From IMG/VR virus record IMGVR_UViG_2648501787_000004, positions 1 through 22,547 of that record: a DNA stretch of 22,547 nucleotides, one strand, 5' to 3'. The translations under genes and the position numbers were made by a program. This stretch comes from a virus (Duplodnaviria > Heunggongvirae > Uroviricota > Caudoviricetes). This document shows, piece by piece, positions 140 to 22,547 of the stretch; position 1 is the stretch's first letter, and each line of letters opens with the position of its first letter. The notes under the pieces were generated by a model that saw only the letters and a program-made list of their open reading frames with translations, searched no databases and was not told the DNA's origin.

Positions 140-3100
140 TCAACTGATACTGATACCTGCTGTTGATTTCTTCATCACCACAACCAGTAAATCGCTGATA
201 CTTGCTGTGGGATACCAGCCATTTACCAGCCATGCTGACACAGAAAATTCCAGCGTCATGTGACCGTGACCGGCAGGCATATCAATAACGCCACTGTAAA
301 TCAGCGTATTATCCAGCGCAGTACGGTTATAAATTTCAGCACCGTTTTTCCGCACTATCAGACGGCATGAGGAGTAAATATCAGTATGATTTCGCTCATG
401 CTTAGCGCCGCTGAATGCCACCGCCGGAATAACAATCTGTCGGTCAAACGGCTGATCGTCATAAATCCTGACGGTAATGGTCCCTGATGGCCACCGTTCC
501 GGTGCTCGGGAGTCCCGGGGGAAAGCTTTACCCACTGTTTTAACGAGATCGCCTTCAATCTGGTTCGCGGACAGTTTTCCCAGAACCCGGCAGTTCTTGT
601 TAATCGTGACGTTGTTGAGCGTCCCGGCGTTCGCATTCACGTTACCGCTGATATCCGCATTTCTCGCCGTCAGTCGCCCGTCCGGTGTCAGGGAAAATGC
701 CGGAGGATTGCCACCACTGGTAATGGTGGGGGCCGTCAGGCGTTTCAGGAACACGTCATTCATGAATATCTGATCACCCTGCGCCACAAACATCGGCGTT
801 TCATTTCCGTTTGCCGGGTCAATAAACGCGATACGGTTAGCGGCAACCAGGAACTGGCTCAGTTTACCTTCCTCCGTGTCCTCCATGCTGAGGCCAATAC
901 CCGCGACATAATGTTTGCCGTCTTTGGTCTGCTCAATTTTGACGCCCCACATGGCATTCCATTTATCGTTGGCATCTTTCCACTCTTTCGAAAACTCCTC
1001 CAGTTTGCTGGCGTTATCCTCCGTCAACTCGACTTTTTCCAGCAGCTCTTTACCGAGATGGGATTCGGTTATCTGGCCTTTGAAAAAATCCAGGTAACCT
1101 TCGGCATCATCGCTCGCCCGACCGACAGCCTCCACAAATGCCGATTTGCCAACGGTGTTCACACTGCGGATGTAAAAATAATAATCATGGCCCGGTTTGA
1201 TATTGATACTGGCAGCTATCCAGTACAGCGCCGTGCCAAGATAGCGGGCTGTAGTTTCAACCTGCCTGATATCCGCAATCCGCTTTTCCGAGAACCAGAA
1301 CTCAAACTGTACCGTCGGATCATAAACGGCAAGATGGGGCGTGGCGGTTATCTGAAAATAGCCCGGCGTCAGCTCAATCCGCGACGGCGCTGCCGGTGCG
1401 GCAATCCGGAACGATACCGATGCAGGATCGCCCTGCTGCCCCCAGGCATTTGCCGCCCGGACTGTCAGCCTGTAGCTTCCCAGCGCCAGCTGCCTGAAGC
1501 GGTATGTGGTTTCCGTCGTCCGGGCCGTGCTGACCAGCCGCTCACTGCCGTCATCCGCTGCCACGGTCAGGCGAAGCATAAAGCTCACACCCTTCACCAC
1601 CTTCGGCGTATCCCAGCGCGCCAGCACCTGATATTCCCCGCTGTCTGCGGTGACTTCTGCGGTCAGGTGCTGCACCGCTGGCGGCGTGACACCATTCACC
1701 GTGCCACTCTGTTCGCCGTCAAAGTGCGCCCCGTTATCCACGATGGCCTCTTTTTCCGGCACATGCTGCACGGCGGTGATGGCATACGTGCCGTCGTCGT
1801 TCTCACGGATACTCACGCAGCGGAACAGTCGCTGGCGCAGCGTCGGCAGCTTCAGCCCCCATACGCTGTATTCAGCAACACCGTCAGGAACACGGCTCAC
1901 TTTTACCTTCACGCCGTCGGTGACGGACTGAACCTCCACGCTGACCGGATTGCCACTTCCGTCAACCAGGCTTATCAGCGTGGTACCGGAGGATGGCAGC
2001 GTGATTTCACGGTCGAGCGTCAGCGTCCGGGTCTGGCTGTTCACCGCCAGCACACGACCACCGATGCTGATACCGGCATAGTCATCATCACAGATTTCAA
2101 TAACATCGCCCGGCACATGGCGAAGCCCTTCTGCGCCCACGCTGAAATCCACGGTCTGCGTTTCCAGCAGTTCCGTTTTAATCAGCCACAGCCCGGCGCG
2201 GTGTGCCTGCCCCCGACTGGTACAACCAAAGGCATCCATCTTCGTGACATTACGACCGTAACGGGCAATGGCCTGCGTATCCTCAACAAGCTCTGTCGCC
2301 GTCTCCCAGCCGTTATCCGGGTCAATCCAGTTCACCTCAACGGCATTATGGCGATCCTTCAGGGCGCTGAAACTGTAGCGGAACGGCGCGCCATCATCCG
2401 GCATCACCACATTACTGCGGTTATAGGTCCACACCTTATCCGATGGCCGGTCCTGCACGAACGTCAGCGTCTGCCCGTTCCATACCGGCATACAGCGCAT
2501 CGCCGAACAGAAATCACTGAGCACATCCCACGCCTTGCGCTGTGTGGTCAGCCAGGCATTACAGGTGATGCGCGGCTCCGTGCTGCCAAAGCCGTCCGGC
2601 ACCGACTGGTCGCAGTAGTGGCCGATAACATACAGCGCCCATTTATCCACATCTGCCGCACCAAGACGTTTCCCCATGCCGTAGCGCGGGTGGGTCAGCA
2701 TATCCCACAGACACCAGGCCATGTTGTTGCTGTATGCCGGTTTAAACGTTCCGTCCCAGATACCGCTGTATTGCCGCGTCTGCGGGTTATAATTCGACGG
2801 CACCTGCAGAATACGCCCGCGCAGATGATAATTACGGCTCACCTGCTGGCTGCCGAACTGCTCCGAGTCCACCTGCACGCCGACCAGTGCCGTGTTCGGG
2901 TAGCACTGTTTCACATCGATGATTTCGGTGTATGACGACCAGAGCGTTTTGTTCTGCAGCTGGTCTGTGGTGCTGTCCGGCGTCATCCTGCGCATCCGGA
3001 TATTGAACGGGCGCGGAGGCAGGTTATCCACCACCACCGAGGCCAGATACTGCGAGGTGGTTTTGCCCTTAATGGTGATGTCTTTTTCCGTCACCCAGCC

Positions 3101-3529
3101 ACGCTGTATCTGAACCAGCAGGCGAACTTCCGACGGACTCCTGTCTCCCTTTGAGGTGGTTTCCACCAGTGCCTGTACACCGAAGGTAAAGCGCAGACGG
3201 TCGATGTTTGCCGACGTGATGGTGCGGGTGATCGGCGTGTCATATTTCACTTCCGTACCCAGCACCGTCTCGGAGCCGGAGGATTCAAACCCCTCCGGCG
3301 GAGTCTGCTCCTGCTCACCTGCCCGGAACACCACCGTGACACCGGAGATGTTGGTATTCCCCTCACTGTCCAGCACCGGCGTACTGTTCAGCAGCACGCT
3401 TTTTAAGCCATCCACCGGACCTTCAATCGGCCCTTCGCTGATGGCATCAATCACACTCAGCAACTGCGTGGACTTCAGGTTGTCCTTCGCTTCGCGCGGG
3501 GTATGCCCCTTACTGCTGCCTTTACCCAT
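140..3529 (-). CDS. J: Tail tip / host specificity protein J (central tail fibre)
   Basis: 1129-aa ORF, same size class as lambda J (~1130 aa); position after I in the lambda order; C-terminal region recognisably lambda-J-like by recall; ATG preceded by GAGGAA. Confidence 0.93.
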
Positions 3530-3551
3530 TCCTCACGCTCCATAAACGACA

Positions 3552-3571
3552 AAACCGCCCGCAGGCGGTTT
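3552..3571. promoter_or_regulatory. Conserved hairpin in the I-J intergenic region (AAACCGCC-cgca-GGCGGTTT)
   Basis: Perfect 8-bp inverted repeat with 4-nt loop; identical copy at 18395-18414. On the minus strand it is followed by a moderately T-rich tract, so it could act as an attenuator or RNA stability element; function not established. Confidence 0.3.
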
Positions 3572-3589
3572 CACATAAAACATTTTGCA

Positions 3590-4237
3590 TCAGCGACCAA
3601 TCACCACAACCTGACCACCGTCCCCTTCGTCTGCCGTGCTGATCTCCTGAGAAACCACCCGCGACCCCACACGCATTTCACCGTACAGAACAGGCAAAAC
3701 ATTGCCCTGAGCAACCATGTTATCCAGTGAGGAGAAATAGGTGTTCTGTTTGCCGTTATCTGTACTGGCTGCCGTGGGCGTCCTGGCTTTCGGTGCCAGC
3801 ATCTGCGCCACACCGCCCAGGATCATACTGGCCCCTGCCGCATACATGCCCGATACAGCCGCGGCACCCAGCCAGCCCACAGGGTTCCACCATGCCACCG
3901 CAATCAACGCCGCCCCCAGCACCACCTGAAATACACCGCCACTTTTAGCTCCCGCCAGACGCGGCACGATATGGATCACGGCACCATTTGCCAGCGGCTC
4001 ATTAAGACGGGCAGATAATTCGGTTTCACCTGCATCACGCCCGGCAATGCGCACCTGATACCAGCCGTCATTCAGCTTCTGACGAAACGCCGGGAGCTGT
4101 GTGGCCAGCGCCCGGATGGCTTCGGCCCCCGTTTTCACACGAAGGTCGATGCGGCGGCCAAATCGTTGCAAATCCCCGTAAAGGCAGATGCGTGCCATGC
4201 CCGGTGACGCCAGAGGGAGTGTGTGCGTCGCTGCCAT
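3590..4237 (-). CDS. I: Tail assembly protein I
   Basis: 215-aa ORF; N terminus MAATHTLPLASPGMARICLYGDLQRFGRRIDL... and C terminus ...NGKQNTYFSSLDNMVAQGNVLPVLYGEMRVGSRVVSQEISTADEGDGGQVVVIGR match my recollection of lambda I; overlaps the 3' end of K as in lambda. Confidence 0.9.
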   Translation of the reverse strand: MAATHTLPLASPGMARICLYGDLQRFGRRIDLRVKTGAEAIRALATQLPAFRQKLNDGWYQVRIAGRDAGETELSARLNEPLANGAVIHIVPRLAGAKSGGVFQVVLGAALIAVAWWNPVGWLGAAAVSGMYAAGASMILGGVAQMLAPKARTPTAASTDNGKQNTYFSSLDNMVAQGNVLPVLYGEMRVGSRVVSQEISTADEGDGGQVVVIGR

Positions 4238-4878
4238 TTGTCGGTATACCTCTCTCGTTTGCTCAGTTGTTCAGGAATATGGTGCAGCAGCTCGCCGTCA
4301 CCACAGTAAATGGCGGCATGATTCGGCACCGATGAACCAAAACAGCACAGCAGCACATCGCCCGGCTGCGCCGCTGACAACGGCACCTGATACAGCCTTG
4401 TGGCCTCCAGATTATCCAGATAGAGATTCTGACCGTGACGCCACCAGTCATCCCCGCGATGAAAATCCGGCATCTCAATCCCCGCCAGATGATAAGCATC
4501 CCGGAACAGCGTGTAACAGTCCGTCACCCCGTGCTCAAAGCGACGCCCGGTAAGATGCGGCACACAGCGGAATTTATGAATCTCACCCCGGCAGACCAGC
4601 CACCAAGGCAAATCGCTCTGCACCTGCAGCCGCCTGTCAGCCTCACTCAGCCAGGGCAGACCACCGGGGTGGCTGTGGACCAGCGCCACAATCTCACCCT
4701 GCATCTCTGCCCGCAGCCAGTCCTCCGGCGACATACGGAAATACGCCTCCGGTTCACCGGAGATATTCACGCAGGGAAAATATCTTTCCCCCTCCGGCGT
4801 TCTCACCACGAAGCCGCACGACTCCGCTGGCGCACATCGCCGGGCGTGCGCCAGAATCGCTGATTCTGTCTGTGTCAT
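4135..4878 (-). CDS. K: Tail assembly protein K (JAB/MPN plus NlpC/P60-type domains)
   Basis: Track ORF 4135-4953; the product probably starts at the internal Met (MTQTESAILAHARRCAPAESCGFVV..., ATG at 4878-4876) as in lambda K; the HSHPGG motif is typical of the MPN/JAB metalloprotease fold. Sits between L and I. Confidence 0.85.
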   Translation of the reverse strand: MTQTESAILAHARRCAPAESCGFVVRTPEGERYFPCVNISGEPEAYFRMSPEDWLRAEMQGEIVALVHSHPGGLPWLSEADRRLQVQSDLPWWLVCRGEIHKFRCVPHLTGRRFEHGVTDCYTLFRDAYHLAGIEMPDFHRGDDWWRHGQNLYLDNLEATRLYQVPLSAAQPGDVLLCCFGSSVPNHAAIYCGDGELLHHIPEQLSKRERYTDKWQRRTHSLWRHRAWHASAFTGICNDLAAASTFV

Positions 4879-9684: not shown

Positions 9685-9696
9685 GTTCTCCACCTG

Positions 9697-10485: not shown

Positions 10486-10495
10486 TACCACCTCC

Positions 10496-11484: not shown

Positions 11485-11495
11485 CCCACACCTCT

Positions 11496-11771
11496 TTACT
11501 CAATAAAGATCATTGGCTTACCGTTAAAGCGTTCATGCCGTGTGACCGTCCAATGTTGTCCGTCATAAACAACGCGATCCCCGCGCCGTGGGCGGTATCC
11601 CGAAGAAAACACCACCAGAGAGACCGCAGGTCCGGACAGAGCATTCAGCTCTGCCAGTGTTTCTCCCGGGATCACAGTCATATCGACATCATTAATCGAG
11701 GCTGTCTTTCCCATCTTTCTGACAGTGATCGCATCCATACGCGCTGCCAGCCGGGAAAAGGGATCAGACAT
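11496..11771 (-). CDS. FII: Head-tail joining protein, FII-like
   Basis: 91 aa; N terminus MSDPFSRLAARMDAITVRKMGK resembles lambda FII MADFDNLFDAAIARADETIRGYMG, plus an RRGD motif; its start overlaps the preceding gene's stop by 8 nt. Confidence 0.7.
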   Translation of the reverse strand: MSDPFSRLAARMDAITVRKMGKTASINDVDMTVIPGETLAELNALSGPAVSLVVFSSGYRPRRGDRVVYDGQHWTVTRHERFNGKPMIFIE

Positions 11772-12087
11772 TGAGTTTTACCGGCACTTCTTCTGCACTG
11801 GTTCCGGCATCTGCCCAGACAACCCCGACCAGCGGATCAGAGCCGCTGTTAGTCAGCTGAACTTTTCCGGACTTCAGATAAACCTTCTTACCCGTTTTCA
11901 TGTCATCCGTTTTCAGCTTAGGCAGCATAAACACACCTTCGGTCAGGCCGTCGCCTGTTTCACCCTGTGGAATATCGGTCAGCGCCACCGCAAAAACATC
12001 ACCCACCTGCACCAGGTCTCCGCTGCTGATGGCTGCACTGGCAACAATCGCCACCGTTTTTCCTTCTTCTACAAAATTCTTTGCCAT
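11764..12087 (-). CDS. Small head protein (DUF2190-like; possible head decoration or head completion role)
   Basis: Track ORF starts at a non-ATG codon (12132); the likely start is ATG 12087 (MAKNFVEEGKTV...) with GGAGA 6 nt upstream. ~107 aa, Gly/Val-rich, sits immediately after the capsid gene as in many HK97-like head modules. Family assignment is from memory and tentative. Confidence 0.55.
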   Translation of the reverse strand: MAKNFVEEGKTVAIVASAAISSGDLVQVGDVFAVALTDIPQGETGDGLTEGVFMLPKLKTDDMKTGKKVYLKSGKVQLTNSGSDPLVGVVWADAGTSAEEVPVKLNV

Positions 12088-12100
12088 AACTGTCTCCGCA

Positions 12101-12149
12101 CAGCCCCGTTCAGGGGCTGATTTCAGGTACAAAAAAAGCCCTTACGGGC
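12101..12149 (-). promoter_or_regulatory. Two hairpins between capsid gene 1 and the next gene (weak terminator plus RBS-proximal hairpin)
   Basis: Minus strand: GGCCC-gtaa-GGGC followed by TTTTTTT (12131-12149), then CAGCCCC-tgaac-GGGGCTG (12101-12119) just upstream of the RBS of the small head gene. Confidence 0.4.
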
Positions 12150-12173
12150 CATCAGAGTTGTTGTCTGCGACGT

Positions 12174-14132
12174 TTACGCCGTACATTTCACCAGACCGCG
12201 GTGATCAACTGGCGCGACACCGGCGTCAATACGCACTTTCGTTGTCACGCCATCCACACTGAAGCCCTCCATCTGATCAATATATGGCGTATCCACACCG
12301 TTGAGATAAGCCACTTCAATCGTATCGGAGCCTTTTGACGCAGCCAGGTAGAAGGTGGTCTGGCTGTTATCATCAAGACGAGGCTCTGCAATAACGGTCG
12401 CAAAATCTTTCACCGGGTTAATAATACCGGCGTTAATGTCAGCCCCCTTGACACTTGAGGAGCGAATGACCTGGTTAGCAACAGACTCCATCGCCGTCGG
12501 TACCAGTACGAACGCAGGACGAATATTCAGATGACGCTCCCCCTCTTTCTGAACGCGCATCAACTGGCGGGCTTTATCCAGCGATGCCACGTCCATTGCA
12601 GCGCTCTCCAGTACGTTTGCATGTTTCGCTTTATCGAACAGACTTACATTATCTGTGGAGATTTTCGGGTTAGACGTCAGAATGGCATAAACCAGATCGG
12701 CAATAGTGGATTTCGCCGCACGGCCCAGCTTCATCGGGACATCGGTCAGCATATTCAGATCATCATTGATAATGGCCTGACGGGTGATACTGAACAGCTC
12801 GCCATAGGTCGCCAGTGCAATAGTGGCCTGTTTATCTCCGGTGGTGACGTATTTATATTCCGCCCCTTCACGCACCTGACGCAGAGCACTGAAGCCCCCC
12901 ATACCCACACGATGGGCAATTTTAAAATCAGACAACTGACCTTTCCGCGTCCACTGTTCATAGGTTTCAGGGGCATCTTCCCAGCCCTGCAGAATGGCTT
13001 TGTTCGCAACATCCAGCAGAATATTACCGAAGTCAGACGTACTGTGTGTGAACGCCGCACCGACCATCTGCATCGGGTTATAACTGGAAATCCCAATACC
13101 CCGTTCAGTCAGTGACATACGGGCATATTCACGCAGGGTCATCCCGTTGTAGACATTATCACGTTCGGTTTTTTCAAATCCGGCACGCGCCATCAGCGCC
13201 TGGCGAATCCCGTCCCCCACAAAATTACCGTTACCGGCATAAATATGAGCCGGGGTATTTTTATTGGATGGCGTGGACTCGCGCCCCATCTCGTTCAACA
13301 GCTTTTCGCGGGCCTGCTCCAGCGAACATTCAGGATCGGCAAGACACTGAGCCTGCAGCGTCTGATAACGCCCGCCAAACATGGCAAACAGATCATTAAT
13401 ACCGTTTACACGCGCTTTTTGCTCTGCCAGTACCTGCGCACGGATGCTGTTTTCATCCACCACGGGTGCTGCTGCCTGCACTGGCGTCCGGGAGGCTGCA
13501 GGTTCATCATCCTGTACGCGTGGAGCACTGTTGCGTGGCGGAGTAATCATGTTTCGAATGGATTCCGGCATCTTTTTAAATTCCTCTGTACGTTTTGACT
13601 GAATACATGCCATTGCCTTAACGGCTGGCGTCACCTGATCAGCAAATCCATGTGCCAGACATTCGGCACCGGACATCCAGGTCTCATCCGCCAGCATGGC
13701 AGCAATTTCATCGGTGGTTTTCCCGGTTTTCTGTGCATAAGCGGGTAACAGAACCGCCTCAACCTTATCGAGCAGGTCGGCATAGGTGCGCATGTCCTCC
13801 GCATCACCGCCCGTAAAGCCAAATGGTTTATGAATCATCATGAAGGTGTTTTCCGGCATAATGACCGGGTTTCCCACCATCGCAATGACCGACGCCATTG
13901 ACGCCGCCACACCGTCGACATAAACGGTAATGGACGCACCATGTGTTTTCAGTGCATTAAAAATGGCGATGCCTTCAAAGACATCGCCACCCGGTGAATT
14001 GATATGGAGATTAATGTGGGTGATATCGCCCAGTGCATTCAGATCACTGATAAACTGCTTCGCTGTAACACCCCAGAAACCAATCTCGTCATAAATATAA
14101 ATATCCGCGTCACTCTGGTGACCAGCCTGCAT
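12174..14132 (-). CDS. Prohead protease / scaffold / major capsid fusion protein (copy 1)
   Basis: Track ORF 12174-14393 extends into the portal gene; the likely start is MQAGHQSDADIYIYDEIG (ATG 14132-14130), 14 nt after the portal stop. N-terminal ClpP/S49-like protease region (HINLHINSPGGDVFEG...VDGVAASMASV), C-terminal region with capsid-like character; ~652 aa. Confidence 0.85.
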   Translation of the reverse strand: MQAGHQSDADIYIYDEIGFWGVTAKQFISDLNALGDITHINLHINSPGGDVFEGIAIFNALKTHGASITVYVDGVAASMASVIAMVGNPVIMPENTFMMIHKPFGFTGGDAEDMRTYADLLDKVEAVLLPAYAQKTGKTTDEIAAMLADETWMSGAECLAHGFADQVTPAVKAMACIQSKRTEEFKKMPESIRNMITPPRNSAPRVQDDEPAASRTPVQAAAPVVDENSIRAQVLAEQKARVNGINDLFAMFGGRYQTLQAQCLADPECSLEQAREKLLNEMGRESTPSNKNTPAHIYAGNGNFVGDGIRQALMARAGFEKTERDNVYNGMTLREYARMSLTERGIGISSYNPMQMVGAAFTHSTSDFGNILLDVANKAILQGWEDAPETYEQWTRKGQLSDFKIAHRVGMGGFSALRQVREGAEYKYVTTGDKQATIALATYGELFSITRQAIINDDLNMLTDVPMKLGRAAKSTIADLVYAILTSNPKISTDNVSLFDKAKHANVLESAAMDVASLDKARQLMRVQKEGERHLNIRPAFVLVPTAMESVANQVIRSSSVKGADINAGIINPVKDFATVIAEPRLDDNSQTTFYLAASKGSDTIEVAYLNGVDTPYIDQMEGFSVDGVTTKVRIDAGVAPVDHRGLVKCTA

Positions 14133-14145
14133 CCTGAACCAGGAA

Positions 14146-15654
14146 TTATTCTTCGGACTGGTCGTCGGTGTGCTGCGGCTCCTGTCGTTTCGTTGCGGCA
14201 CTGCTGCCTCCTTTATCACTGGCCGGATCGGTATCAAATACCAGATCCAGCTTGCGGTTTTCATCAATTTCGGCCTTGCGCCGACGTTTGACATCATCCG
14301 GATTACGACCACCAGCACGTACCCAGTCTGATTCTGTCGCCGCTCCACCACGAATCTGGATTTTCCAGGCCTCAGCCTCCTTAACAGGGTCAATCCACGG
14401 CATCACCGGTCCGGAATACACCGCGGTATACAGTGAAGAACGGTCAAGATCGCGGGGTAGCCTGATAACACCGGATGCCACAGCCTGTTTCAGCCAGGCA
14501 CGATACATCGGGCGGGTGACGGCACCAATAAACCAGTCCTGCAGGATCAGGTAGCCATCTGTGGATTCAACCAGCTCCTGACGCTGGGCGCTGTAAGTGC
14601 CGTTATAGTTGCGTGCCGTACTGGAAAAACTCAGACGACTGCCCGCCGCCACGGCACGCAACTGACCATTACGAAAAGTTTCAAGGTTAGGATTGGGACG
14701 ATCCGACTTCACCATTCCGATTTCTTCGCCGGGTTTCAGATCGTCGTAAATAATGCCTGGCTGAATGGTAAGCTCGCGTTCATTCTCCTTGCTGCCATTA
14801 CCATCCGGTTCATAGCTCTGCCCGTCGCCTTTCCGGATGTACATCCCCAGAGCAGCGGCGACCCTTGCTGCAGTCAGCTCAGAATCTTCATACTCTTTCA
14901 GGGCACTGAGGCGGATCAGCACACCGGACAACAAAGACGTCCCGCGCATCTGGTGCAGACGGCGAACAAATTTAAGATGCAGCATTCGCTCTGCATCCAC
15001 TTCTTTGGTTTCCATCTGCCGCCAGGATACGGGACGACTTTTATACACCAGATATTTTTCGGGACGCCCCCAGTCATCAACAAACACGCCCTGATTCAGC
15101 CTGTTGCTCTCATCACTGGTCATGGGAATAAAGTCTGGCTCGAGCGCCTCCAGCCAGAAATGAACACCGGCAGAAGGCGTCAGGTTGTTTATGCGCCCGG
15201 AAACCATCTGGGCAAACACCTCACCATCGCGCAGCCAGGTACGCAACATCAGACGTTCCAGCATCGGACGGGTAAACTGCCCGGTGACTTCCGGGCTGAC
15301 AGACCATTCACTCCATCGGGTGCGTATCTCCGCTGCCAGATCACGGGCAATGGCCCCATTGCGTAATACCGGATGTGGCTCGACAATAATCCCGTTTTTC
15401 CCCACCACCCGTTCTTCCAGCTTGTCAAATACACCAATAACCAGATCGTGGTTGTTATCAAGGTAACGGGCCTGCTCACGTAACGACACGGCCCCGTACT
15501 GGCTTAACTGGTCGGCAGTTCGGTTTTCCCGCCGGGCTTTGTGTGTCCGCGTCGTTTTTACGGCCTCATAAGCCTGGATCACCGCACGGGAACGCAGCCT
15601 TGCCGCTTTCCATCCTGGTGAAAAAACGCCAATCACATCATCAAGAATTGCCAT
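14146..15654 (-). CDS. Portal protein
   Basis: Track ORF 14146-15726; the likely start is MAILDDVIGVF at ATG 15654-15652, overlapping the W stop by 1 nt (TGATG); ~500 aa, acidic C-terminal tail; position between W and the capsid gene. Confidence 0.85.
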   Translation of the reverse strand: MAILDDVIGVFSPGWKAARLRSRAVIQAYEAVKTTRTHKARRENRTADQLSQYGAVSLREQARYLDNNHDLVIGVFDKLEERVVGKNGIIVEPHPVLRNGAIARDLAAEIRTRWSEWSVSPEVTGQFTRPMLERLMLRTWLRDGEVFAQMVSGRINNLTPSAGVHFWLEALEPDFIPMTSDESNRLNQGVFVDDWGRPEKYLVYKSRPVSWRQMETKEVDAERMLHLKFVRRLHQMRGTSLLSGVLIRLSALKEYEDSELTAARVAAALGMYIRKGDGQSYEPDGNGSKENERELTIQPGIIYDDLKPGEEIGMVKSDRPNPNLETFRNGQLRAVAAGSRLSFSSTARNYNGTYSAQRQELVESTDGYLILQDWFIGAVTRPMYRAWLKQAVASGVIRLPRDLDRSSLYTAVYSGPVMPWIDPVKEAEAWKIQIRGGAATESDWVRAGGRNPDDVKRRRKAEIDENRKLDLVFDTDPASDKGGSSAATKRQEPQHTDDQSEE

Positions 15655-15872
15655 CAGAACCTCGCCAGCCGGTACCCGGGATGCCCCCGTCGTCGTGTAA
15701 TCAGAGCCGCAAGGCGGCGCTCCCACTCCTGCCGTCCCTGCCGGATCTCAGATAAGTTTTCCATGGTCATCTGCTGACCATTAAAGGTGACGGATTTTCC
15801 GTCCAGCACCGCCATTTCAGCTTCCGTATAACGCTGAATCATGGCTTCGATATCATTCTGGTTCATAACCAT
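15654..15872 (-). CDS. W: Head-tail joining / head completion protein, gpW-like
   Basis: 72 aa (or 70 from Met3); C-terminal RRRGHPGY resembles the lambda W C terminus (RRRGPAGFYV); placed between terminase large subunit and portal as in lambda. Confidence 0.6.
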   Translation of the reverse strand: MVMNQNDIEAMIQRYTEAEMAVLDGKSVTFNGQQMTMENLSEIRQGRQEWERRLAALITRRRGHPGYRLARF

Positions 15873-16975
15873 CCTCCGGAAGTCAGCCAGGGGTTAACAT
15901 CGTCAGTTACTGTTTTCTTCCGTTTTTGTTTTTTAACAGGCGTGGATACCGGTTCCGGTGAGGGTGACGGTTTGGTACTGTCCGGGACACACTCCAGCCA
16001 GGTTTCCCGGCTCGCCCATTCCGGTGCATCCGGCCAGCGGATCTTTTCGTATCCATGCAGAATGACCAGAGCCTCGGCATACACCATCAGGTCAAAAGCT
16101 TCGTTGGCACCGCGACCCGGCTTACTCCATTTCCCGTCACTGCTCCGCTCTTCATACGTCAGTTCGTCGTAAAACCAGCTCCCCAGCCAGTCAGGGAAAT
16201 GCACATAGCCGGGACCTGGAGAGTCACGCCATAACGCGTTATTCACCCGGTCTTTCAGGGCATCCGTCTGAAGAAGCCAGAGCGGCACATCACCTGCGGC
16301 CTGCGCCCGTCGGCCCGTTCGTCCGGTGTTATCAGGGAATGTACGGGTGATCAGTTTTGCGCGCCGGATGCTGTCGCCCTTAAACAAGTAAATACGTTTA
16401 CCAAGGCCATCACGACGGCAACGACGCCAGAATTTATAGGCATTATCAGTGACCCCGTCTTCACCGCCGGAATCCACCGCCATTGCCATCAGTCGCATTT
16501 GTTGAGAAGGATCGGAGGCCAGCGGCCAGCTTTTATGAAAAACATCCGTCAGCAGGACATCCCAGTCTTCCGGATAGCTGGCCGGATCAATTCGCTGGCT
16601 CTCCCCGTCGCTGTCACCGCGCAATGACTGCGTGATGTTGTAACGATCAATAATCCAGCGTTCGCCACGGCTGCCATAGCCCGTTACCTGAACCACAAAA
16701 CGGCGATGACGTCCCGCCTGCACATCAACTGTCGCCACCAGGAAATTAACGCCATCCGGCACACTGCGGGAAGGAACTGGCTCTGCCCGCTGCTCAAGCA
16801 GTTCACTTTTTCGTTGCTCCATGCTGGCACGGGGAAGATAAGGTAATCCCCAGTCGGTATTGATAACCGTCTTGAGTGTTTCTTCACTTCCGGTTGTCTC
16901 GTATTCCTGTTCTGCAGTAAGCAGTTTGTAAACGAGTTGCGAGAGTGTCTGGTAAGCAGCTGCCGGACCCTCCAT
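15863..16975 (-). pseudogene. A: Terminase large subunit, C-terminal (nuclease) domain only; N-terminal ATPase domain absent
   Basis: 370-aa ORF resembling roughly the C-terminal half of lambda gpA (e.g. VATVDVQ..., WDSKKRRNEALDCFVYA-like region ...GANEAFDLMVYAEAL). Upstream in frame there are only 11 unrelated codons before a stop (17009-17011), and the sequence above 16980 is AT-rich non-coding DNA. Confidence 0.75.
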
Positions 16976-16979
16976 CCAG

Positions 16980-17440
16980 GAAGAAGTAAATAAAAGGTAA
17001 CTAAATGATTATAAGGTACTATTGAGTTATGCCCCCTACAACATAGTCCCAGATTTAGTACCTGCTTAAGCGATAAAAAAGCCAAAAAGGAAGCAATATT
17101 AATTATTGCCGCTATGCATGATCACAATGACAAATCAGAGGCGGAATTCCGCTCTCGGAACTCACATATGAGAAACGATATTTCTTCCACCGATACCCTT
17201 TATTTGGGTATCGCGAGTAAGCCCCAAAATCTGGGTGTTACTCTTACTACCCAAACTACGGGTAGTTTCCGTAGTTTCATAGTCGAGTTGCAGATCTGCA
17301 ACTCGCCACCAGTTGCTAAGTGCATTTTTGCACTTTCGATAATATCAACCAGTTACCGCCGTAAGTGCTCCGGCTTCCTCCACTGGTAAGTATTTTTCGC
17401 GCTCTCCCTCCGTTGTTGAGAACGGCGACGGTATGCCAGC
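16980..17440. other. AT-rich, palindrome-rich non-coding segment replacing the middle of the terminase large subunit gene
   Basis: Visibly AT-rich compared with flanking genes; contains the perfect 12-bp palindrome GCGGAATTCCGC (17141-17152), hairpin CGATACCC-n7-GGGTATCG (17191-17213), inverted repeat AAACTACGG-n7-CCGTAGTTT (~17252-17276) and a perfect 20-bp palindrome GAGTTGCAGATCTGCAACTC (17285-17304). No ORF with recognisable similarity. Confidence 0.6.
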
Positions 17441-17640
17441 AACTCAAGAACTCTGGTTCGTATGTTGCGCATATCAACGCCGTTAAGCTCAATACCGTCA
17501 CGGCGCATCACCTCAGCCACCACACGCGCGTAATTTTCAGCGGTGACTGTATCCGGCTGCGCGGCCTGTTCGTCAGCCAACTGGCTGATTCCACCAGCAC
17601 AGCGGATTAATCGCAGTATTTCAGATTCGGTCATTATCAT
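17353..17640 (-). pseudogene. Short ORF translationally coupled to the small terminase gene; probably the N-terminal remnant of the large terminase gene
   Basis: Its ATG overlaps the Nu1-like stop by 4 nt (17637-17640), the position where the large terminase gene normally starts; the last ~30 codons are Arg/Gln-rich and run into the AT-rich segment, suggesting read-through into non-native sequence. Homology to the gpA N terminus is weak. Confidence 0.35.
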
Positions 17641-18122
17641 GCCTGTTTTGCGACCTCATTCACTACGTCATTTTTTACCATCCGGCTGATAATCTGATTA
17701 CGCAAATCGTCAATAATTGACTGCACTCTGTTTACTGCCATCGGTTTAAGCCCGGCATCACGTGCCAGAATATTGGGGAGTTTTGCCAGTTCCTCGCTTA
17801 CGATTTCCCCCCATATAGCCATCTCTTTTCGCACATCATCGGCGGGTATGAGTTGCGCCGTTTCCTGTTCGAACTTGAGGCGCTCACGTTCGGACTGATA
17901 CCAGGCCTTACGGTCATGTGGCTCCATTTCTTCCAGTGATGCCGGAACGGGAAGATCAAGAAAACAGGTCAGAATGTCAGTCACCCGATAGAGTTTTAGC
18001 TTGTCATGCCCTCCGGCTGGCTGGATGTTTTTCAGCCTTGCCGCCGCAGTCTGACGACATATTCCCGCTATCGCCGCCAGTTGATTAATGTTCAGCATCA
18101 GATTTTTCAGTTCTCGATCCAT
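17637..18122 (-). CDS. Terminase small subunit, Nu1-like
   Basis: Track ORF 17637-18209; the likely start is MDRELKNLMLNINQLAAIAGICRQTAAARL (ATG 18122-18120, GGAG 7 nt upstream). N-terminal helix-turn-helix followed by a charged coiled region (ERERLKFEQETAQL), laid out like lambda Nu1; first gene after a cos-like region. Confidence 0.65.
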   Translation of the reverse strand: MDRELKNLMLNINQLAAIAGICRQTAAARLKNIQPAGGHDKLKLYRVTDILTCFLDLPVPASLEEMEPHDRKAWYQSERERLKFEQETAQLIPADDVRKEMAIWGEIVSEELAKLPNILARDAGLKPMAVNRVQSIIDDLRNQIISRMVKNDVVNEVAKQA

Positions 18123-18289
18123 ACCCGCTCCAGAATGTTTTAAACATGCATCTTGCGAACAACTTTCAGAAGAGGTCAAAAAATGCGCTATATGTTGAGC
18201 ATAAAACAAGCAAAATTAACATGCCAAAAATAAAAACACTTAAAATTCAATATCATAGAAAGATGATGATGACGAATGAAAATGCAAAA
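18123..18289. promoter_or_regulatory. cosB-like AT-rich region with repeated TGCAT-containing motifs between the cos candidate and the small terminase start
   Basis: Minus strand: ...tttttGCATtttcattcgtcat...tttttggCATGttaattttgcttgttttatgc...caagaTGCATGtttaaaac...; contains TTCGTCAT and TGTTTTTATTT, which I recall from lambda cosB. Possible terminase small subunit or IHF binding sites. Confidence 0.35.
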
Positions 18290-18370
18290 ACTAGCCTTTT
18301 TCCGCGCCGCTCCCGCCTCGCGGCAGGCCACCTCACCGGGAGGACCCACCCAAAAAAGGCGACTGTCACT
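18290..18370. promoter_or_regulatory. Candidate cos site (cosQ/cosN-like GC-rich element)
   Basis: Minus strand reads GGGTCCTCCCGGTGAGGTGGCCTGCCGCGAGGCGGGAGCGGCGCGG; the GGGTCCT..CCGGTGA stretch resembles my recollection of the lambda right-end flank (GGGTCCTTTCCGGTGATCC), and the element sits ~170-250 bp upstream of the Nu1-like start. The exact nick positions cannot be assigned. Confidence 0.4.
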
Positions 18371-18432
18371 ATTGTTTATGCTCCATGAGCGACAAAACCG
18401 CCCGCAGGCGGTTTCACATAAAACATTTTGCA

Positions 18433-19074
18433 TCAGCGACCAATCACCACAACCTGACCACCGTCACCTTCGTCTGCCGTGCTGATCTCCTGAGAAACCA
18501 CCCGCGACCCCACACGCATTTCACCGTACAGAACAGGCACAACATTGCCCTGGGCAACCATGTTATCCAGAGAGGAGAAATAGGTGTTCTGCTTACCGTT
18601 ATCCGTGGTGCTGGCTGTTGCTGTGCTGGCTTTCGGTGCCAGCATCTGTGCAACACCACCAAGTGTCATCGCCGCCCCCATTGAAAAGAGAATGTCACTG
18701 AAAGCGATACTGATTCCTGGCATCCAGATTGCCGTAGCAATCAGCGCCGCACCAAGCACCGCCTGAAACACGCCGCCACTTTTGGCACCAGCCAGACGCG
18801 GTACGATGTGGATCACGGCACCATTTTCCAGCGGTTCATTAAGACGGGCTGATAATTCGTTTTCGCCTGTATCACGCCCGGCAATACGCACCTGATACCA
18901 ACCATCGCTCAGTTTCTGACGAAACGCTGGGATCTGCATGGCCAGCGCCCGGATGGCTTCGGCCCCCGTTTTCACATGAAGATCGATGCGGCGGCCAAAT
19001 CGTTGTAAATCCCCGTAAAGGCAGATGCGTGCCATGCCCGGTGACGCCAGAGGGAGTGTGTGCGTCGCTGCCAT
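18433..19074 (-). CDS. I: Tail assembly protein I, second copy (mosaic allele)
   Basis: 213 aa; the N-terminal ~110 aa and C-terminal ~70 aa are almost identical to the I protein at 3590-4237, while the central hydrophobic segment differs (IATAIWMPGISIAFSDILFSMGAAMT versus IAVAWWNPVGWLGAAAVSGMYAAGASMI). Confidence 0.85.
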   Translation of the reverse strand: MAATHTLPLASPGMARICLYGDLQRFGRRIDLHVKTGAEAIRALAMQIPAFRQKLSDGWYQVRIAGRDTGENELSARLNEPLENGAVIHIVPRLAGAKSGGVFQAVLGAALIATAIWMPGISIAFSDILFSMGAAMTLGGVAQMLAPKASTATASTTDNGKQNTYFSSLDNMVAQGNVVPVLYGEMRVGSRVVSQEISTADEGDGGQVVVIGR

Positions 19075-19133
19075 TTGTCGGTATACCTCTCTCGTTTGCT
19101 CAGTTGTTCAGGAATATGGTGCGGCAGCTCGCC
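18972..19133 (-). pseudogene. 3'-terminal remnant of a K gene (truncated at the duplication boundary)
   Basis: The sequence upstream of I copy 2 matches the K/I overlap of copy 1 only up to ~19133, after which it diverges; no K-like N-terminal coding sequence follows. Lower boundary inferred by offset from copy 1. Confidence 0.45.
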
Positions 19134-19163
19134 GCCCCACGTGTTCAAAGTACCGCCTTGTTG

Positions 19164-21077
19164 TCATGCTCCATTCGATTTCAGCAATCCACGATAATCG
19201 AGGGCCGCGACACCTGCATCTATGCGCACCTTCCAGGCGACACCATCAACAGTAAAGCCCACCTGCTCCTCAAGATATGGCGTATCCATACCATCAAGAT
19301 AAGCGACTTCTATTGTGTCCATCCCCTTAGCTGCGGCTACATACCATTCCTTGCTATTGGCCTTATCAAGACGTGGCTCAACAATTACTTCTGCCATATC
19401 TTTCACAACGTTAATGATGCCGGGGTTCTGATTGATAGTGCCCTCATCACCAACCGGAAAGACTGATGACGATGACAGAATGGCGCGACGCGCGGCAGAT
19501 TCCAGCGCGGCAGGGACCAGAACAAAAGCAGGGGTAATATTCAGTGAGTCGCCGTTAGCATCCTCCTGGAGGCGCATCAGCTTACGGGCTTCATCAAGCC
19601 CCACCATGTCCATATCCTTCGCAATAAGATTTTTATGATCGGCATGGAATAACGCTTTACCATCCGTAAACTTGCCGTTGCTGGTTAACAGGAGATAAAC
19701 CAGATTGCCAACTGTTCTGGCGGCTGCGCGTCCCATTGCCATGGGGATTGTAGTTAACTGGGTCAGGTCATCGTTGATAATGGCCTGACGGGTAACGGAA
19801 AAAATATTCCCGTACGTGGCCAGCGCAATAGGTACACCTTTATCGCTGGTGGTGATGTATTTATATTCCGCACCTTCCGGTACTTTATCCAGCTTTGAAA
19901 AACCATTCAGACCAACGCGCTTTGCTTCATGAAAGTTTGAAAGCGAACCGGTACGCGTCCATTTCTGGAACGTTTCGCCGCTGTCCTGCCAGCCTTTCAG
20001 TACAGATTTTTCAGCCCCACCAGCCAGAATATGAGAAAAATCACTGCTGCTGTGTGTAAAAGCCGCATTAACAACCTGCGAGCGATTAATAAAACCACTC
20101 ACAGTGATACCACGATCAACCAGTGATGCCTGGGCCATTTCAAAAAGGCTCATCATCGCGTAAGGGTTGCCTCGTTCAGGGCGTTCATACCCAAGACGGG
20201 AATAAAGCCCCTGACGAATTGCATCACCTGTTATGTTTCCGTTTCCGGCATAGATATGAGGCGGGGTATTTTTATTGGATGGCGTGGACTCGCGCCCCAG
20301 CTCGTTCAACAGCTTTTCACGGGCCATTTCCGGTGTACATGATGCATCTTCCAGACACGCCATTTTGATCCCGTCGTAACGACTGCCGAACAGGCTAAAC
20401 ACTTCACTTATTCCATTGATGCGTTTCTGTTCATTACCAGCAATATTTGCCGCTCCCTGTGGCGGTGTAATCATTCCTTTAATGGTTTCCGGCATATGTA
20501 AAAAATCTCCTGTGCGCTTCGATTCAATTCGCGCCATTGCTCTGACGGATGGCAACAATTCATCAGCAAAACCGTGCTTAAGGCATTCTTTCCCGTCCAT
20601 CCAGGTTTCATCTTCCAGCATGGCGGTAATTTCCTGTGCTGATTTGCCCGTTTTTCTGGCATAAGCAGGGACTAACACGGTTTCCACCTTATCCAGCAAA
20701 TCAGCATAATCACGCATATCACCAGCATTTCCGCCAGAGATACCCCACGGCTTATGTATCATCATCATGGCGTTTTCCGGCATCACAACACGATCGCCAG
20801 CCATTGCGACCACCGAAGCCATTGAAGCCGCAACACCATCGATATAAACCGTAATGTCTGCCGGATGATTCCGTAGCAGGTTATAGATGGCGATGCCTTC
20901 AAACACATCACCACCTGGTGAATGGATCCTCAGATTGATATGTGAAACATCGCCAAGGGCTTTCAGGTCTTCCGCGAACTGCTTTGCAGTAACACCGAAG
21001 CCGCCAATCTCCTCATAGATAGATATATCCGCCGCTCCGCGAACATCCGCCGCCTTAATGGTGTACCAGCGATTCAT
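19164..21077 (-). CDS. Prohead protease / scaffold / major capsid fusion protein (copy 2, divergent)
   Basis: 637 aa, colinear with copy 1 over its whole length but clearly diverged (by eye roughly 60-70% identity); same ClpP/S49-like motifs (HINLRIHSPGGDVFEG, VDGVAASMASV). ATG 21077-21075 with a G-rich RBS; ATGA overlap with the upstream small ORF. Confidence 0.85.
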   Translation of the reverse strand: MNRWYTIKAADVRGAADISIYEEIGGFGVTAKQFAEDLKALGDVSHINLRIHSPGGDVFEGIAIYNLLRNHPADITVYIDGVAASMASVVAMAGDRVVMPENAMMMIHKPWGISGGNAGDMRDYADLLDKVETVLVPAYARKTGKSAQEITAMLEDETWMDGKECLKHGFADELLPSVRAMARIESKRTGDFLHMPETIKGMITPPQGAANIAGNEQKRINGISEVFSLFGSRYDGIKMACLEDASCTPEMAREKLLNELGRESTPSNKNTPPHIYAGNGNITGDAIRQGLYSRLGYERPERGNPYAMMSLFEMAQASLVDRGITVSGFINRSQVVNAAFTHSSSDFSHILAGGAEKSVLKGWQDSGETFQKWTRTGSLSNFHEAKRVGLNGFSKLDKVPEGAEYKYITTSDKGVPIALATYGNIFSVTRQAIINDDLTQLTTIPMAMGRAAARTVGNLVYLLLTSNGKFTDGKALFHADHKNLIAKDMDMVGLDEARKLMRLQEDANGDSLNITPAFVLVPAALESAARRAILSSSSVFPVGDEGTINQNPGIINVVKDMAEVIVEPRLDKANSKEWYVAAAKGMDTIEVAYLDGMDTPYLEEQVGFTVDGVAWKVRIDAGVAALDYRGLLKSNGA

Positions 21078-21283
21078 TGTTCCCCCACCGATGCAAAACC
21101 ATTCTGATTAAGCCAGGTGTTTACGGCATGTCTGACAATCTGCGCCACACCTGGTAATGGTTGGTCAGGATGATGATTTATATGGTCGATCCTGTACTGC
21201 TTAAGGCGCATAACGGTCTGCGCATCCAGATGAACGGAACCACCTCTGGTATCACCTGTGTTCAGGTCATTAATACAACTCAC
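21074..21283 (-). CDS. Hypothetical small protein (69 aa), translationally coupled to capsid gene copy 2
   Basis: GTG start at 21283-21281 with GAGGAAG 6-7 nt upstream; stop overlaps the capsid-2 ATG (ATGA). No recognisable family from sequence alone. Confidence 0.45.
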   Translation of the reverse strand: MSCINDLNTGDTRGGSVHLDAQTVMRLKQYRIDHINHHPDQPLPGVAQIVRHAVNTWLNQNGFASVGEQ

Positions 21284-21385
21284 AGCAACTTCCTCTGACT
21301 GACTAAACTATGCACATTATTGATCGATAAAAGTGGTAAATAAACATATTTCTATCATAAAAACAGATTAATTAGATTCAGACAC

Positions 21386-21407
21386 AAAAAAGCCGGATTT
21401 CTCCGGC
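21386..21407 (-). terminator. Rho-independent terminator downstream of the primase gene and iteron array
   Basis: Minus strand: GCCGGA-gaaa-TCCGGC stem-loop (21392-21407) followed by TTTTTT (21386-21391). Confidence 0.65.
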
Positions 21408-21537
21408 TTCTGTCACTCGTTGCTTAAAACGGTATGTTATCCCCGTACGGATCATCATTCCCCGCCTGTTGTTTTGGTGTGCTTCGCTGTCATAGGCTTT
21501 ATCTCACAGCAGTAAATTAAAATTTTTGCGTTTTAAC

Positions 21538-21766
21538 CCTTCACCTGTTCACCTTTTGATATTTTCTCTATTAATTCATAATGTTAAGGGGTGAACAGTT
21601 TCAAAAAAACTATTCACCAACTGTTCACCACTGTTCACCCTTGAAGCTCAATAAACAATCAAAAAGGTGAACAGTGAATAGTTTGGTGAACAGTTCATAA
21701 ATAACTGCTCACCCTATAATATACTGATATAAAAGATATTTATGACAGGGTGAACAGTGGTGAACA
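21538..21766. repeat. Iteron array of TGTTCACC octamers in both orientations (P4 ori/crr-type)
   Basis: Perfect TGTTCACC at 21546-21553, 21622-21629 and 21632-21639; perfect reverse-orientation GGTGAACA at 21590-21597, 21666-21673, 21685-21692, 21749-21756 and 21759-21766; one-mismatch variants at 21611-21618, 21674-21681 and 21706-21713. Embedded in AT-rich DNA directly downstream of the primase stop. Confidence 0.75.
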
Positions 21767-21780
21767 GTTATTCCATAAGT

Positions 21781-22547
21781 TTAATTTTTGCTATCGTCAT
21801 TAGTGACCGATACACATGATGGCATCCAGTCTTCTGATTCCTCCGTCAGTGTCACGTTTGAACGCAAACCGTGCTTCGTTTTCCGTTTCATATACTCCCT
21901 GCCATATTCCGCCATTGCCCCCGGCATATCTTTACCGAAGCGCGTCAGTGTTACAGGTTTACCAAACCCATGTGCCCTCATATAAGCCAGATAGGCATGA
22001 TAGAGATACCTGCGTGGGCTGAATGGCACAATTTCAGCATTACCCACTAACAGGCCATCACACATTACCGACGCCATGAGATAGCCGCAGAAGTCCACCA
22101 GCGAATCCCCCTCTCGCTTTATCGCCAGTGCTTCTTCAGATTTCTGCTGCTCATATAACAGGCGTCTGGCTTCGTCCTGGTTAGCAAACCGTGTAAGCAG
22201 ATGGCGAATCACTACCGCCAGCTCACCTTCTATTTTTTCCGCCAGCATTGGATCACGTTCGTTCTCCGGTACAACTTCCGAAAAATTGAATATCACCCGA
22301 CGACGTGAGATCCCCCCGCTGCGGTCACTGAATGACATGGCGTTATTGTTAACCGCCAGCACTACTGCCGGAATACGCGTTGAGTAGGGGGCTTTGTGTT
22401 TCGGGTCAATTGCCACCTTGTCACCGCCTGTAATAGCCTTAATCCCTGCTCCATCACCAGCGTAGCGGGTCATATCCGGCATGATAATCAGCGAAAAGCC
22501 AACCACTAACGCGCGTTCCCTTGCATCTTCCAGCGCCTTCATGCTTG
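21781..22547 (-). CDS. Phage/plasmid primase, P4 family, C-terminal region (partial; 5' end outside the window)
   Basis: Open frame from the window edge to the stop at 21781; contains ITGGDKVAI...RRRVIFNFSEVVPENERD...IEGELAVVIRHLL, which matches my recollection of the conserved C-terminal region of P4 alpha-type primases (D5_N/primase_Cterm). Direct adjacency to TGTTCACC iterons supports this. Confidence 0.7.
   Translation of the reverse strand, partial: SMKALEDARERALVVGFSLIIMPDMTRYAGDGAGIKAITGGDKVAIDPKHKAPYSTRIPAVVLAVNNNAMSFSDRSGGISRRRVIFNFSEVVPENERDPMLAEKIEGELAVVIRHLLTRFANQDEARRLLYEQQKSEEALAIKREGDSLVDFCGYLMASVMCDGLLVGNAEIVPFSPRRYLYHAYLAYMRAHGFGKPVTLTRFGKDMPGAMAEYGREYMKRKTKHGLRSNVTLTEESEDWMPSCVSVTNDDSKN

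Follow-up and report, generated by a model that had tools for sequence, protein, structure and literature searches.

Two related copies of tail gene I form a direct repeat

The virus record IMGVR_UViG_2648501787_000004 (Caudoviricetes) was analyzed over positions 1 to 22,547, and this whole 22,547-nt stretch is referred to as the window. It holds 2 related copies of a lambda-type tail gene I, named I and I'. Copy A is gene I of an mEp460-like lambdoid prophage, the helper, and is set in a lambdoid tail operon of the order H, M, L, K, I, J. Copy B, which contains I', lies in a 10,520-bp satellite of the phage-inducible chromosomal island (PICI) type, integrated site-specifically in the helper terminase gene gpA. 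The features of the 2 copies are listed below.

3537..4300, minus strand: repeat copy A (helper), with the last ~60 nt of the K coding region, gene I, and the I-J hairpin, up to the J ribosome-binding site
3590..4237, minus strand: helper gene I, homolog of lambda tail-tip gpI (215 amino acids; Pfam Lambda_tail_I, E=1.3e-24)
3552..3571, minus strand: GC-rich hairpin between I and J, helper copy, from folding
140..3529, minus strand: helper tail-tip gene J, directly downstream of copy A
18380..19137, minus strand: repeat copy B (satellite), with the K' remnant, I', and a hairpin, from alignments
18433..19074, minus strand: I', satellite tail-tip protein I gene, an intact open reading frame (ORF; 213 amino acids; Pfam Lambda_tail_I, E=3.3e-23)
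18972..19133, minus strand: K', 3'-terminal remnant of tail gene K, lacking the N-terminus (54 codons)
18395..18414, minus strand: hairpin downstream of I', satellite copy, from folding

The first-pass annotation had placed a direct repeat of ~750 bp at 3536-4286 and 18372-19133 and proposed a self dot-plot as a check. Self-comparison of the window yielded 2 families of 300-nt direct repeats, at offsets of 14,843 and 14,837 bp, which pairwise alignment joined into a single continuous, co-linear direct repeat between 3537-~4300 and 18380-~19137. The annotated coordinates thus hold to within ~10 bp of the alignment. The description of the copies as near-identical went too far. The repeat is ~88% identical overall in the pairwise alignment, and in 30-bp windows the flanks (3537-3746 and 4107-4290) are 93-100% identical and the centre (3747-3900) 27-67%. 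The sole indel between the copies, 6 bp and in frame, also lies in the divergent centre. At the protein level, I and I' share 85% amino acid identity, with all divergence confined to residues ~100-150. The repeat is therefore a mosaic, with similarity well beyond chance.

Both ends of the repeat fall where they had been annotated. One is GCTCCAT (3537-3543 and 18380-18386), the complement of the Shine-Dalgarno region ATGGAGC of J, whose start ATG is located at 3527-3529. The other falls in the 3'-terminal part of K, ~60 bp ahead of the start codon of I. A hairpin adjoining the I stop codon was found by folding in both copies. The I-J hairpin went uncalled in the consensus terminator scan. In phage Ayreon, the annotations covered by the equivalent K-I-hairpin match include a "terminator" feature, and the hairpin, supported by folding, is a putative terminator.

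In the window, the K/I allele of the helper matches alleles of other E. coli prophages at 99.9% identity, and is thus an ordinary circulating allele. The helper of strain A20 carries an additional 339-bp hypothetical ORF between I and J (L001 6203-6541), and its gene I has a divergent 3' end, with 75% identity to the A20 satellite copy. Accordingly, the helper side of the repeat is variable too.

Copy B lies in a satellite integrated in the helper gpA gene

The features that define the satellite and its junctions are listed below. Those outside the window are given in the coordinates of L006, a 96.6-kb contig that is 100% identical to window 8433-22547 and extends beyond the window end.

15863..16975, minus strand: helper gpA, C-terminal (nuclease) half only (Pfam GpA_nuclease)
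16968..16979, minus strand: attR core CTGGATGGAGGG (gene strand), junction of the satellite and the gpA nuclease half
17353..17640, minus strand: conserved satellite ORF (93-95 amino acids), phrog_1561
17637..18122, minus strand: satellite homolog of the small terminase subunit, TerS (DUF1441, 161 amino acids; 67% amino acid identity to the helper TerS)
18123..18347, minus strand: satellite cos-like block and TerS leader, aligned with the region upstream of the helper TerS
19164..21077, minus strand: satellite fusion of ClpP protease and major capsid protein, "capsid-2" (57% amino acid identity to that of the helper)
21781..22547, minus strand: satellite primase/helicase (D5_N-DUF5906-Pox_D5), cut by the window end
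L006 1576-1587: attL
L006 1747-2985: satellite tyrosine integrase

The satellite core genes and the helper late genes are without exception encoded on the window's minus strand, so the satellite is co-oriented with the gene that it interrupts. Read on this strand from the high end, the window contains the cut primase, inverted iteron-like repeats, capsid-2, K'-I'-hairpin, the cos-like block, the DUF1441 gene, and the 95-amino-acid ORF; beyond the gpA nuclease half follow the portal, a second ClpP-capsid fusion, and the tail genes. In L006 the order is helper TerS (DUF1441), GpA_ATPase (331 amino acids), attL, the satellite from int to orf93, attR, and GpA_nuclease. The helper TerS and the gpA ATPase half therefore lie past the window end, the ATPase half being 10.5 kb from the nuclease half. 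The complete satellite carries, in order, int, a helix-turn-helix (HTH) gene, Bro-N, an Icd-like gene, DUF4222, primase, ori, the ClpP-capsid fusion, K'-I'-hairpin, the cos-like block, the TerS homolog, and orf93. The HTH protein in L006 (67 amino acids) matches phrog_66, excisionase/regulator, at E=1.4e-6, and falls below the Pfam cut-off for HTH_17.

The insertion point lies between the ATPase and nuclease domains of gpA, at the core CTGGATG in codons F-W-M|E-G. The attachment cores, defined from the attL/attR pairs of A20 and L006, are CTGGATGTAGGG for attL and CTGGATGGAGGG for attR. When the gpA halves are joined at the core they read ...RIASFWM|EGPAAAYQ..., and the restored reading across attB, expected on excision, is TTCTGGATGGAGGG. 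Over a 65-amino-acid peptide that crosses the junction, the match to the large terminase subunit (TerL) of the viable phages mEp460, Ayreon, phi458, and others is 100% and without gaps. This exact restoration indicates precise site-specific integration into an otherwise normal helper gene. In the integrated state, the N-terminal half of gpA meets a stop codon directly after the core and the C-terminal half has no N-terminus. The attP supplies no replacement sequence, leaving gpA inactive until excision, a feature of helper-embedded PICIs (HE-PICIs); the satellite, set inside a gene of its helper, is one. The attP of a circular sibling satellite (L002, described below) was tried as a guide to the core and set aside: it is unrelated to the attR of the window, the L002 integrase/att module being different.

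The same arrangement recurs in other strains. In A20 the entire window is collinear at ~95.5% identity, the block being placed between genes annotated "terminase, missing C-terminus" and "gpA endonuclease, missing N-terminus"; B1-56 and KSC64 are likewise collinear at ~95.5%, and in each of the 3 the satellite lies between N- and C-terminal pseudogene halves of gpA. In a survey of 5,426 complete E. coli genomes, 77 carried the attR junction, among them Shiga toxin-producing strains of O121:H19, O157:H7, and O145, and 122 carried the block from the primase to the 95-amino-acid ORF (megablast, window 17000-22547), one of these hits being a circular 10,790-bp record that also has an integrase. 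A tRNA scan of the window found none, hence no tRNA-type att site in this part, and an Rfam scan of the window and L006 returned no family and no C4/isrK immunity RNA in the part covered.

Some further features of the satellite family were noted. A 36-nt inverted repeat of TGTTCACC-type iterons lies at window 21606-21782, just downstream of the primase, the reported position of PICI replication origins. Satellites of B1-56, KSC64, and others carry a gene for single-stranded DNA-binding protein (SSB) and a small ORF between the primase and capsid-2 (L003 19915-20868); the window satellite lacks both (~21398-21472), and the pair is a further module polymorphism of the family. Three short "phage" records, CP025902.1 (13.5 kb), ON470618.1 (14.9 kb), and ON470578.1 (16.2 kb), match I' or the gpA junction, and may be partial phages or satellites deposited as phages.

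Packaging and capsid genes of the satellite

The first-pass annotation had taken the repeats to bracket one packaging-head-tail module. The cos-like block, the DUF1441 TerS, and the 95-amino-acid ORF next to I' are those of the 10.5-kb satellite that splits gpA, not of the phage, and this part of the earlier picture falls. Homology of the cos-like block to the region upstream of the helper TerS begins exactly at GGGTCCTCCCGG, and the block is strongly conserved; we take it for a putative cos of the satellite. We also attempted to place cosN from the ends of the phage Ayreon record. That record starts 25 bp before terS, not at a physical end, and the cos assignment stays putative.

The satellite DUF1441 protein matches the PHROG "terminase small subunit" at E=1.5e-57. 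The PICI EcCICFT073 redirects packaging with Rpp, a protein of ~144-153 amino acids (RppA/B/C) that binds the phage TerS (PMC6739421). An Rpp identity of the DUF1441 protein is not supported: it matches the TerS family, and a comparison with the PDB chain set gave no match at E<=0.1, the presence in that set of the solved RppC structures (PMC6739421) being unconfirmed. No Rpp homolog was detected in this comparison, which covered the DUF1441 protein alone.

A second and older set of direct repeats is formed by the ClpP-capsid fusions of the helper (12174-14393) and the satellite (19164-21077), with 64-78% DNA identity. The amino acid identities between helper and satellite proteins, 57% for the capsid, 67% for TerS, and 85% for I, suggest captures of differing ages. 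The satellites of the L009-L011 set are located at clpS and beside tRNA-Ile; those beside tRNA-Ile share the ClpP-capsid late zone of the window satellite and resemble the tRNA-Ile2 PICIs, which are reported as targets of other HE-PICIs at C:CLP_protease:110 (PMC10111431); if so, capsid-2 could hold an attB for a further nested satellite.

K'-I'-hairpin is a discrete cassette flanked by a 9-bp direct repeat

Comparison with related satellites delimits the captured segment.

18368..19155, minus strand: K'-I'-hairpin cassette, 788 bp, an insertion/deletion polymorphism of the satellite late zone

E. coli B1-56 has the same helper and gpA-embedded satellite, with 95.7% identity over window 1038-18367, and carries 5 bp in place of window 18368-19155, a clean 788-bp versus 5-bp indel. 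In gene orientation, the empty-site junction reads ...AGTGGAGCATGACAACAAGGGCGGCGATAGCCGCCTTTTTTT ACGGGTCCTCCCGG...; the filled site reads ...AATGGAGCATGACAACAAGGCGG|TACTTTGAAC...(K') at the upstream junction and ...GGTTTTGTCGCTCATGGAGCATAAACAATAG...GCCTTTTTTGGGTGGGTCCTCCCGG... at the downstream junction. Within the 22.5-kb window there are exactly 2 occurrences of the 9-mer ATGGAGCAT (plus strand ATGCTCCAT), at 18378-18386 and 19166-19174, that is, at the cassette ends. Bases 1-7 of this 9-mer equal the J ribosome-binding sequence of the helper I-J junction. Because of this overlap, the "gctccat" boundary of similarity would correspond to the microhomology that joined a phage K'-I-hairpin fragment to the end of the capsid gene. 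We propose a single entry of the cassette into the satellite late zone by illegitimate recombination, with ATGGAGC(AT) as the microhomology; the phage J ribosome-binding site shares this sequence with the final codons of the satellite capsid gene. K' was captured together with I because the I start overlaps the end of K; its equivalents are annotated "incomplete phage tail protein" in the corresponding records.

The first-pass annotation had suggested comparing related genomes for a deleted or an unduplicated form. Unduplicated forms do exist, and they outnumber the others: 175 of the surveyed genomes have the cassette-free junction of this late zone, against 23 with the contiguous, cassette-bearing zone. 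A deleted form was not encountered (0/5,426; see below). Only A20, C6, KSC64, and OW968288 combine the gpA-embedded position with the cassette, and the direct-repeat configuration seen in the window is limited to these 4 genomes. Elsewhere, the cassette occurs in satellites at clpS/cspD, in satellites next to tRNA-Ile, and in the circular 10,790-bp record, none of which has an adjacent prophage. The circular record, L002 (NZ_CP148328.1), was deposited as a "plasmid" and is a complete sibling of the window satellite; its integrase differs, whereas its late zone, I' included, is the same. This suggests that the satellite existed in that culture as an episome, either excised or replicating.

The cassette end segments and junctions are 100% identical across satellites at all these locations. 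K'-I'-hairpin thus forms a discrete cassette of 788 bp whose junctions do not vary among the satellites carrying it, and this constancy across locations argues for a single capture predating the present location and against a local rearrangement scar. A donor phage for the 213-amino-acid I' allele was not found: no phage or prophage exceeded ~92% identity over the cassette, and the central segment of I' had no match above 80% amino acid identity among 50,697 phage records.

Short patches are exchanged between I and I'

Alignment of the window cassette with those of 4 other satellites revealed 14 private substitutions, all in 18415-18514, of which 13 match gene I of the window helper. At sites informative between the satellite consensus and the helper, the window I' is satellite-type except for an unbroken run of 13 helper-type sites, flanked by satellite-type markers at 18389 and 18540, which gives a patch of 100-150 bp.

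18415..18514, minus strand: gene-conversion patch, 13 consecutive helper-type sites

The patch spans the last ~27 codons of I' and the hairpin, and changes 2 residues (I to V) to the helper state. The I' interior is mosaic across satellites, while the junctions are fixed. Two interior alleles were found, one of 213 amino acids and one lambda-like of 223. The satellites of PK5074, E16002, and PEC122 carry the lambda-like 223-amino-acid I', with ~95% DNA identity to lambda-type phages; the allele of the window and A20 is 87-89% identical to them. PK5074 and E16002 differ by a further, third patch, at the equivalent of 18593-18632. These data show that short patches are copied between phage I alleles and satellite I', and that the variable centre of I is framed by conserved 5' and 3' parts that serve as homology arms.

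Full crossovers were sought separately. The first-pass annotation had predicted that recombination between the repeats would delete everything from cos through K in one step and had called the locus structurally unstable. A crossover between the co-oriented copies would indeed remove 14.8 kb; the deleted stretch would not be the cos-to-K module of one phage, and would take from the satellite its cos, TerS, and attR, and from the helper the gpA nuclease half, the portal and capsid genes, and the tail genes as far as K. Neither product was found fixed at >=80% coverage in the survey: the predicted deletion junction, represented by a chimeric query of the J 5' end, I', and the capsid-2 3' end, gave 0/5,426, and the reciprocal cointegrate junction (satellite TerS/cos, I, and helper K) also gave 0/5,426. 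Such a crossover would disable both elements, which would explain why none is seen fixed. With only short gene-conversion patches detected, the claim of instability is not sustained as far as fixed rearrangements go.

I' is predicted to be a tail-tip protein of the lambda gpI family

In lambda, gpI is present in 3 copies in the tail tip, and its N-terminal domain is unresolved in the structures (PMC11101478; PDB 8iyk, 8xcg). Its hydrophobic helices H1/H2 (~residues 101-158) have been proposed to insert into the outer membrane, the plug (159-175) seals the tube, the strands thread through gpJ, and the protein is more than an assembly chaperone (PMC11101478). Residues 1-213 of I' align full-length to lambda gpI 1-223 in structures 8iyk/8xcg (E=3e-104), and the Pfam Lambda_tail_I match scores 82.3 bits against a cut-off of 23.8. 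By its N-terminal domain and its C-terminal plug and strands, I' is assigned to the lambda gpI tail-tip family. The divergent centre of the repeat corresponds to H1/H2 (central segment peptide, e.g., AVLGAALIATAIWMPGISIAFSDILFSMGAAMTLGGVAQMLAPK), and the near-identical ends correspond to the N-terminal domain, the plug, and the gpJ-contacting strands.

I' sits between the capsid gene and the cos/TerS region, with only the K remnant before it and no J after it, outside the K-J operon context of gpI, a protein that assembles with gpJ and gpL. Its own ribosome-binding site is retained, in a stretch where satellite and helper are identical. The former capsid terminator is now downstream of the cassette and degenerate, and I' would be co-transcribed with the satellite capsid gene. 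By analogy with published HE-PICIs, the satellite would excise on induction, restoring gpA, would be packaged by the helper TerL through its own cos and TerS homolog, and would use helper tails. We consider the chances about even that I' would be expressed and built into helper tails as a working tail-tip subunit. If I' is functional, satellites would tamper with the tail tip, a step of helper exploitation hitherto undescribed.

A more specific and speculative proposal, which we regard as unlikely, is that the satellite keeps its own gpI allele, refreshed by gene conversion against the resident helper, and that I' in stolen tails alters ejection or entry, or interferes dominantly with the helper. 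Were it true, this would be the first case of a satellite remodelling the helper tail tip, not the capsid or packaging specificity. According to PMC10111431, 16-kb Klebsiella HE-PICIs at A_Terminase_1_132 have Lambda_tail_I as the last late gene and the only tail gene, preceded by a complete set of head and terminase genes. Satellites may have acquired gene I there independently; if tail-tip remodelling is true, Lambda_tail_I as sole tail gene in those elements would be convergent.

Weighing of the alternatives

The structural reading, in which the repeat consists of a helper gene I and a satellite I' cassette, the satellite being an HE-PICI in gpA, is the best explanation of the locus, and we give it a probability of roughly 85%. 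Several points weigh against it or its extensions. The int/attL side lies outside the window and is known from the identical contig L006 and the collinear genomes. The assignment to the HE-PICI class draws on site, orientation, zones, and att. Base-by-base examination covered 9 cassette copies. The resident helper cannot be proven to be the donor of the patch, a prophage with the same allele in an earlier host fitting equally well. Polymorphism of I' within satellites is sparse, so that the evidence for selection is suggestive and weak and the cassette could be an almost neutral passenger; it is absent from 88% of satellites with this late zone. Excision, packaging, I' expression, and incorporation of I' into tails are all steps that we infer.

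The alternative that survives best leaves the structure intact and makes I' a functionless young passenger, repaired by conversion with phage alleles. We judge this a serious contender, though rather less probable than its negation. It would account for the presence of the cassette in only 23 of ~198 genomes with this late zone; PICI capsid genes are themselves dispensable for transfer (Fillol-Salom 2018, as cited in PMC10111431), and the satellite cannot steer I'-containing tails to its own capsids. The I' ORF is nevertheless intact in 9/9 satellite copies examined, across 3 integration sites and 2 interior alleles, and the ratio of nonsynonymous to synonymous substitution rates (dN/dS) between the diverged alleles is ~0.2. 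Within the 213-amino-acid allele group, 4 synonymous sites against 1 non-synonymous site are too sparse for a strong selection test. Its own ribosome-binding site, the position for co-transcription with the capsid gene with the old terminator displaced downstream, and the listing of Lambda_tail_I as the only tail gene in unrelated Klebsiella HE-PICIs (PMC10111431), also argue against a mere passenger.

Far less probable is an origin of the cassette by imprecise integrase excision at a site near K/I/J, or by a deletion fusing the satellite to a neighbouring prophage, in place of microhomology joining. HE-PICI integration sites do exist in L and J (bioRxiv version of PMC10111431), and integrases have been suggested as possible participants in capture (PMC10111431). 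The cassette, however, occupies an internal position in the late zone, with the capsid gene on one side and cos on the other, and is not att-proximal; no att-like core is found at its ends, and the flanking 9-bp direct repeat (15/19 bp when extended) matches the J ribosome-binding site, the signature of microhomology joining.

The first-pass annotation had also raised the possibility that the arrangement is the scar of recombination between 2 related prophages. In its full form, the repeat would be a duplication within or between related prophages, bracketing one cos-to-K module and prone to a 14.8-kb deletion. We find this very improbable. The co-oriented copies share 200-bp stretches at 97-100% identity, enough for RecA-mediated crossover, and the region has 2 capsid and 2 TerS-type genes. 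The segment holding copy B, on the other hand, has a full satellite organization (int, Bro-N, primase, and late zone) with defined att cores inside gpA, joining the halves restores gpA exactly, the cassette junctions are the same in the circular 10.8-kb record and in satellites remote from prophages, and the deletion junction is absent from all the genomes surveyed. An assembly artefact, with 2 unrelated contigs joined through shared I sequence, might be imagined for a window that comes from a draft contig (L007, 22.6 kb), and can practically be dismissed, the same order across the repeat and both flanks being found in 4 independent complete genomes and the 96.6-kb contig.

Comparison with known satellites

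The satellite shares features with 3 described groups. Capsid-forming PICIs (cf-PICIs; bioRxiv 10.1101/2022.09.08.507074) likewise have their own HK97-fold capsid and small terminase subunit and, as is predicted for the window satellite, depend on helper tails. They are characterized by a full complement of head and packaging genes (capsid, protease, portal, connectors, TerS, and TerL). The window satellite has only the ClpP-capsid fusion and the TerS homolog, and assignment to the cf-PICIs was rejected, as it lacks a portal, head-tail connectors, and TerL. It also carries a tail gene, whereas cf-PICIs are defined as stealing tails, not encoding them. Gram-negative PICIs of the EcCICFT073 type (Fillol-Salom 2018, 2019; PMC6739421) resemble it in the order of int, an alpA-like gene, primase, ori, and late genes, in a helper-like cos, putative in the window satellite, and in parasitising lambdoid cos phages, as is predicted for it; siblings of the window satellite occupy chromosomal sites (clpS/cspD and tRNA-Ile). 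It differs from them in encoding a DUF1441-type TerS homolog, 67% identical to that of the helper. With regard to the tail protein, I' has the Lambda_tail_I domain, hydrophobic H1/H2 segment, plug, and C-terminal gpJ-threading strands of lambda gpI; it differs in being satellite-encoded and in its H1/H2 segment, a distinct allele 10 residues shorter than that of lambda.

The closest match is the HE-PICI class described by Tommasini, Mageeney & Williams 2023 (PMC10111431), whose late zone holds helper-captured genes, usually including a capsid gene. As in that class, the target gene is disrupted without replacement sequence, and there are 4 zones: integration, Bro, replication, and late. These zones follow in order in L006, as Int/HTH, Bro-N, primase, and then capsid, I', and TerS. 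The target differs: here it is a lambda-type gpA split between ATPase and nuclease, whereas the published gene-A sites are in the Terminase_1 family (A_Terminase_1_132, _245/246). All 116 "terminase" labels listed in its attL/attR supplements, as far as these were available, are Terminase_1_132 or _24x, with 0 "GpA" and 0 tggatggaggg, and the 14 HE-PICI sites published there do not include the one in gpA. Nor does PMC10111431 describe an I cassette or patchy conversion with helper alleles.

What had appeared as a duplicated, unstable morphogenesis region is a two-element composite, a satellite nested in the helper terminase gene. The arrangement is a member of the published HE-PICI class, with the late-gene capture published for it. 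Three aspects appear to be new. The integration site in lambda-type gpA adds to the published set. The I cassette, with its microhomology junction, offers a cleanly delimited example of helper-gene capture by a satellite late zone, probably through 9 bp of microhomology. The patch conversion is direct sequence evidence that a satellite gene and its helper homolog exchange short patches, with no crossover products seen fixed.

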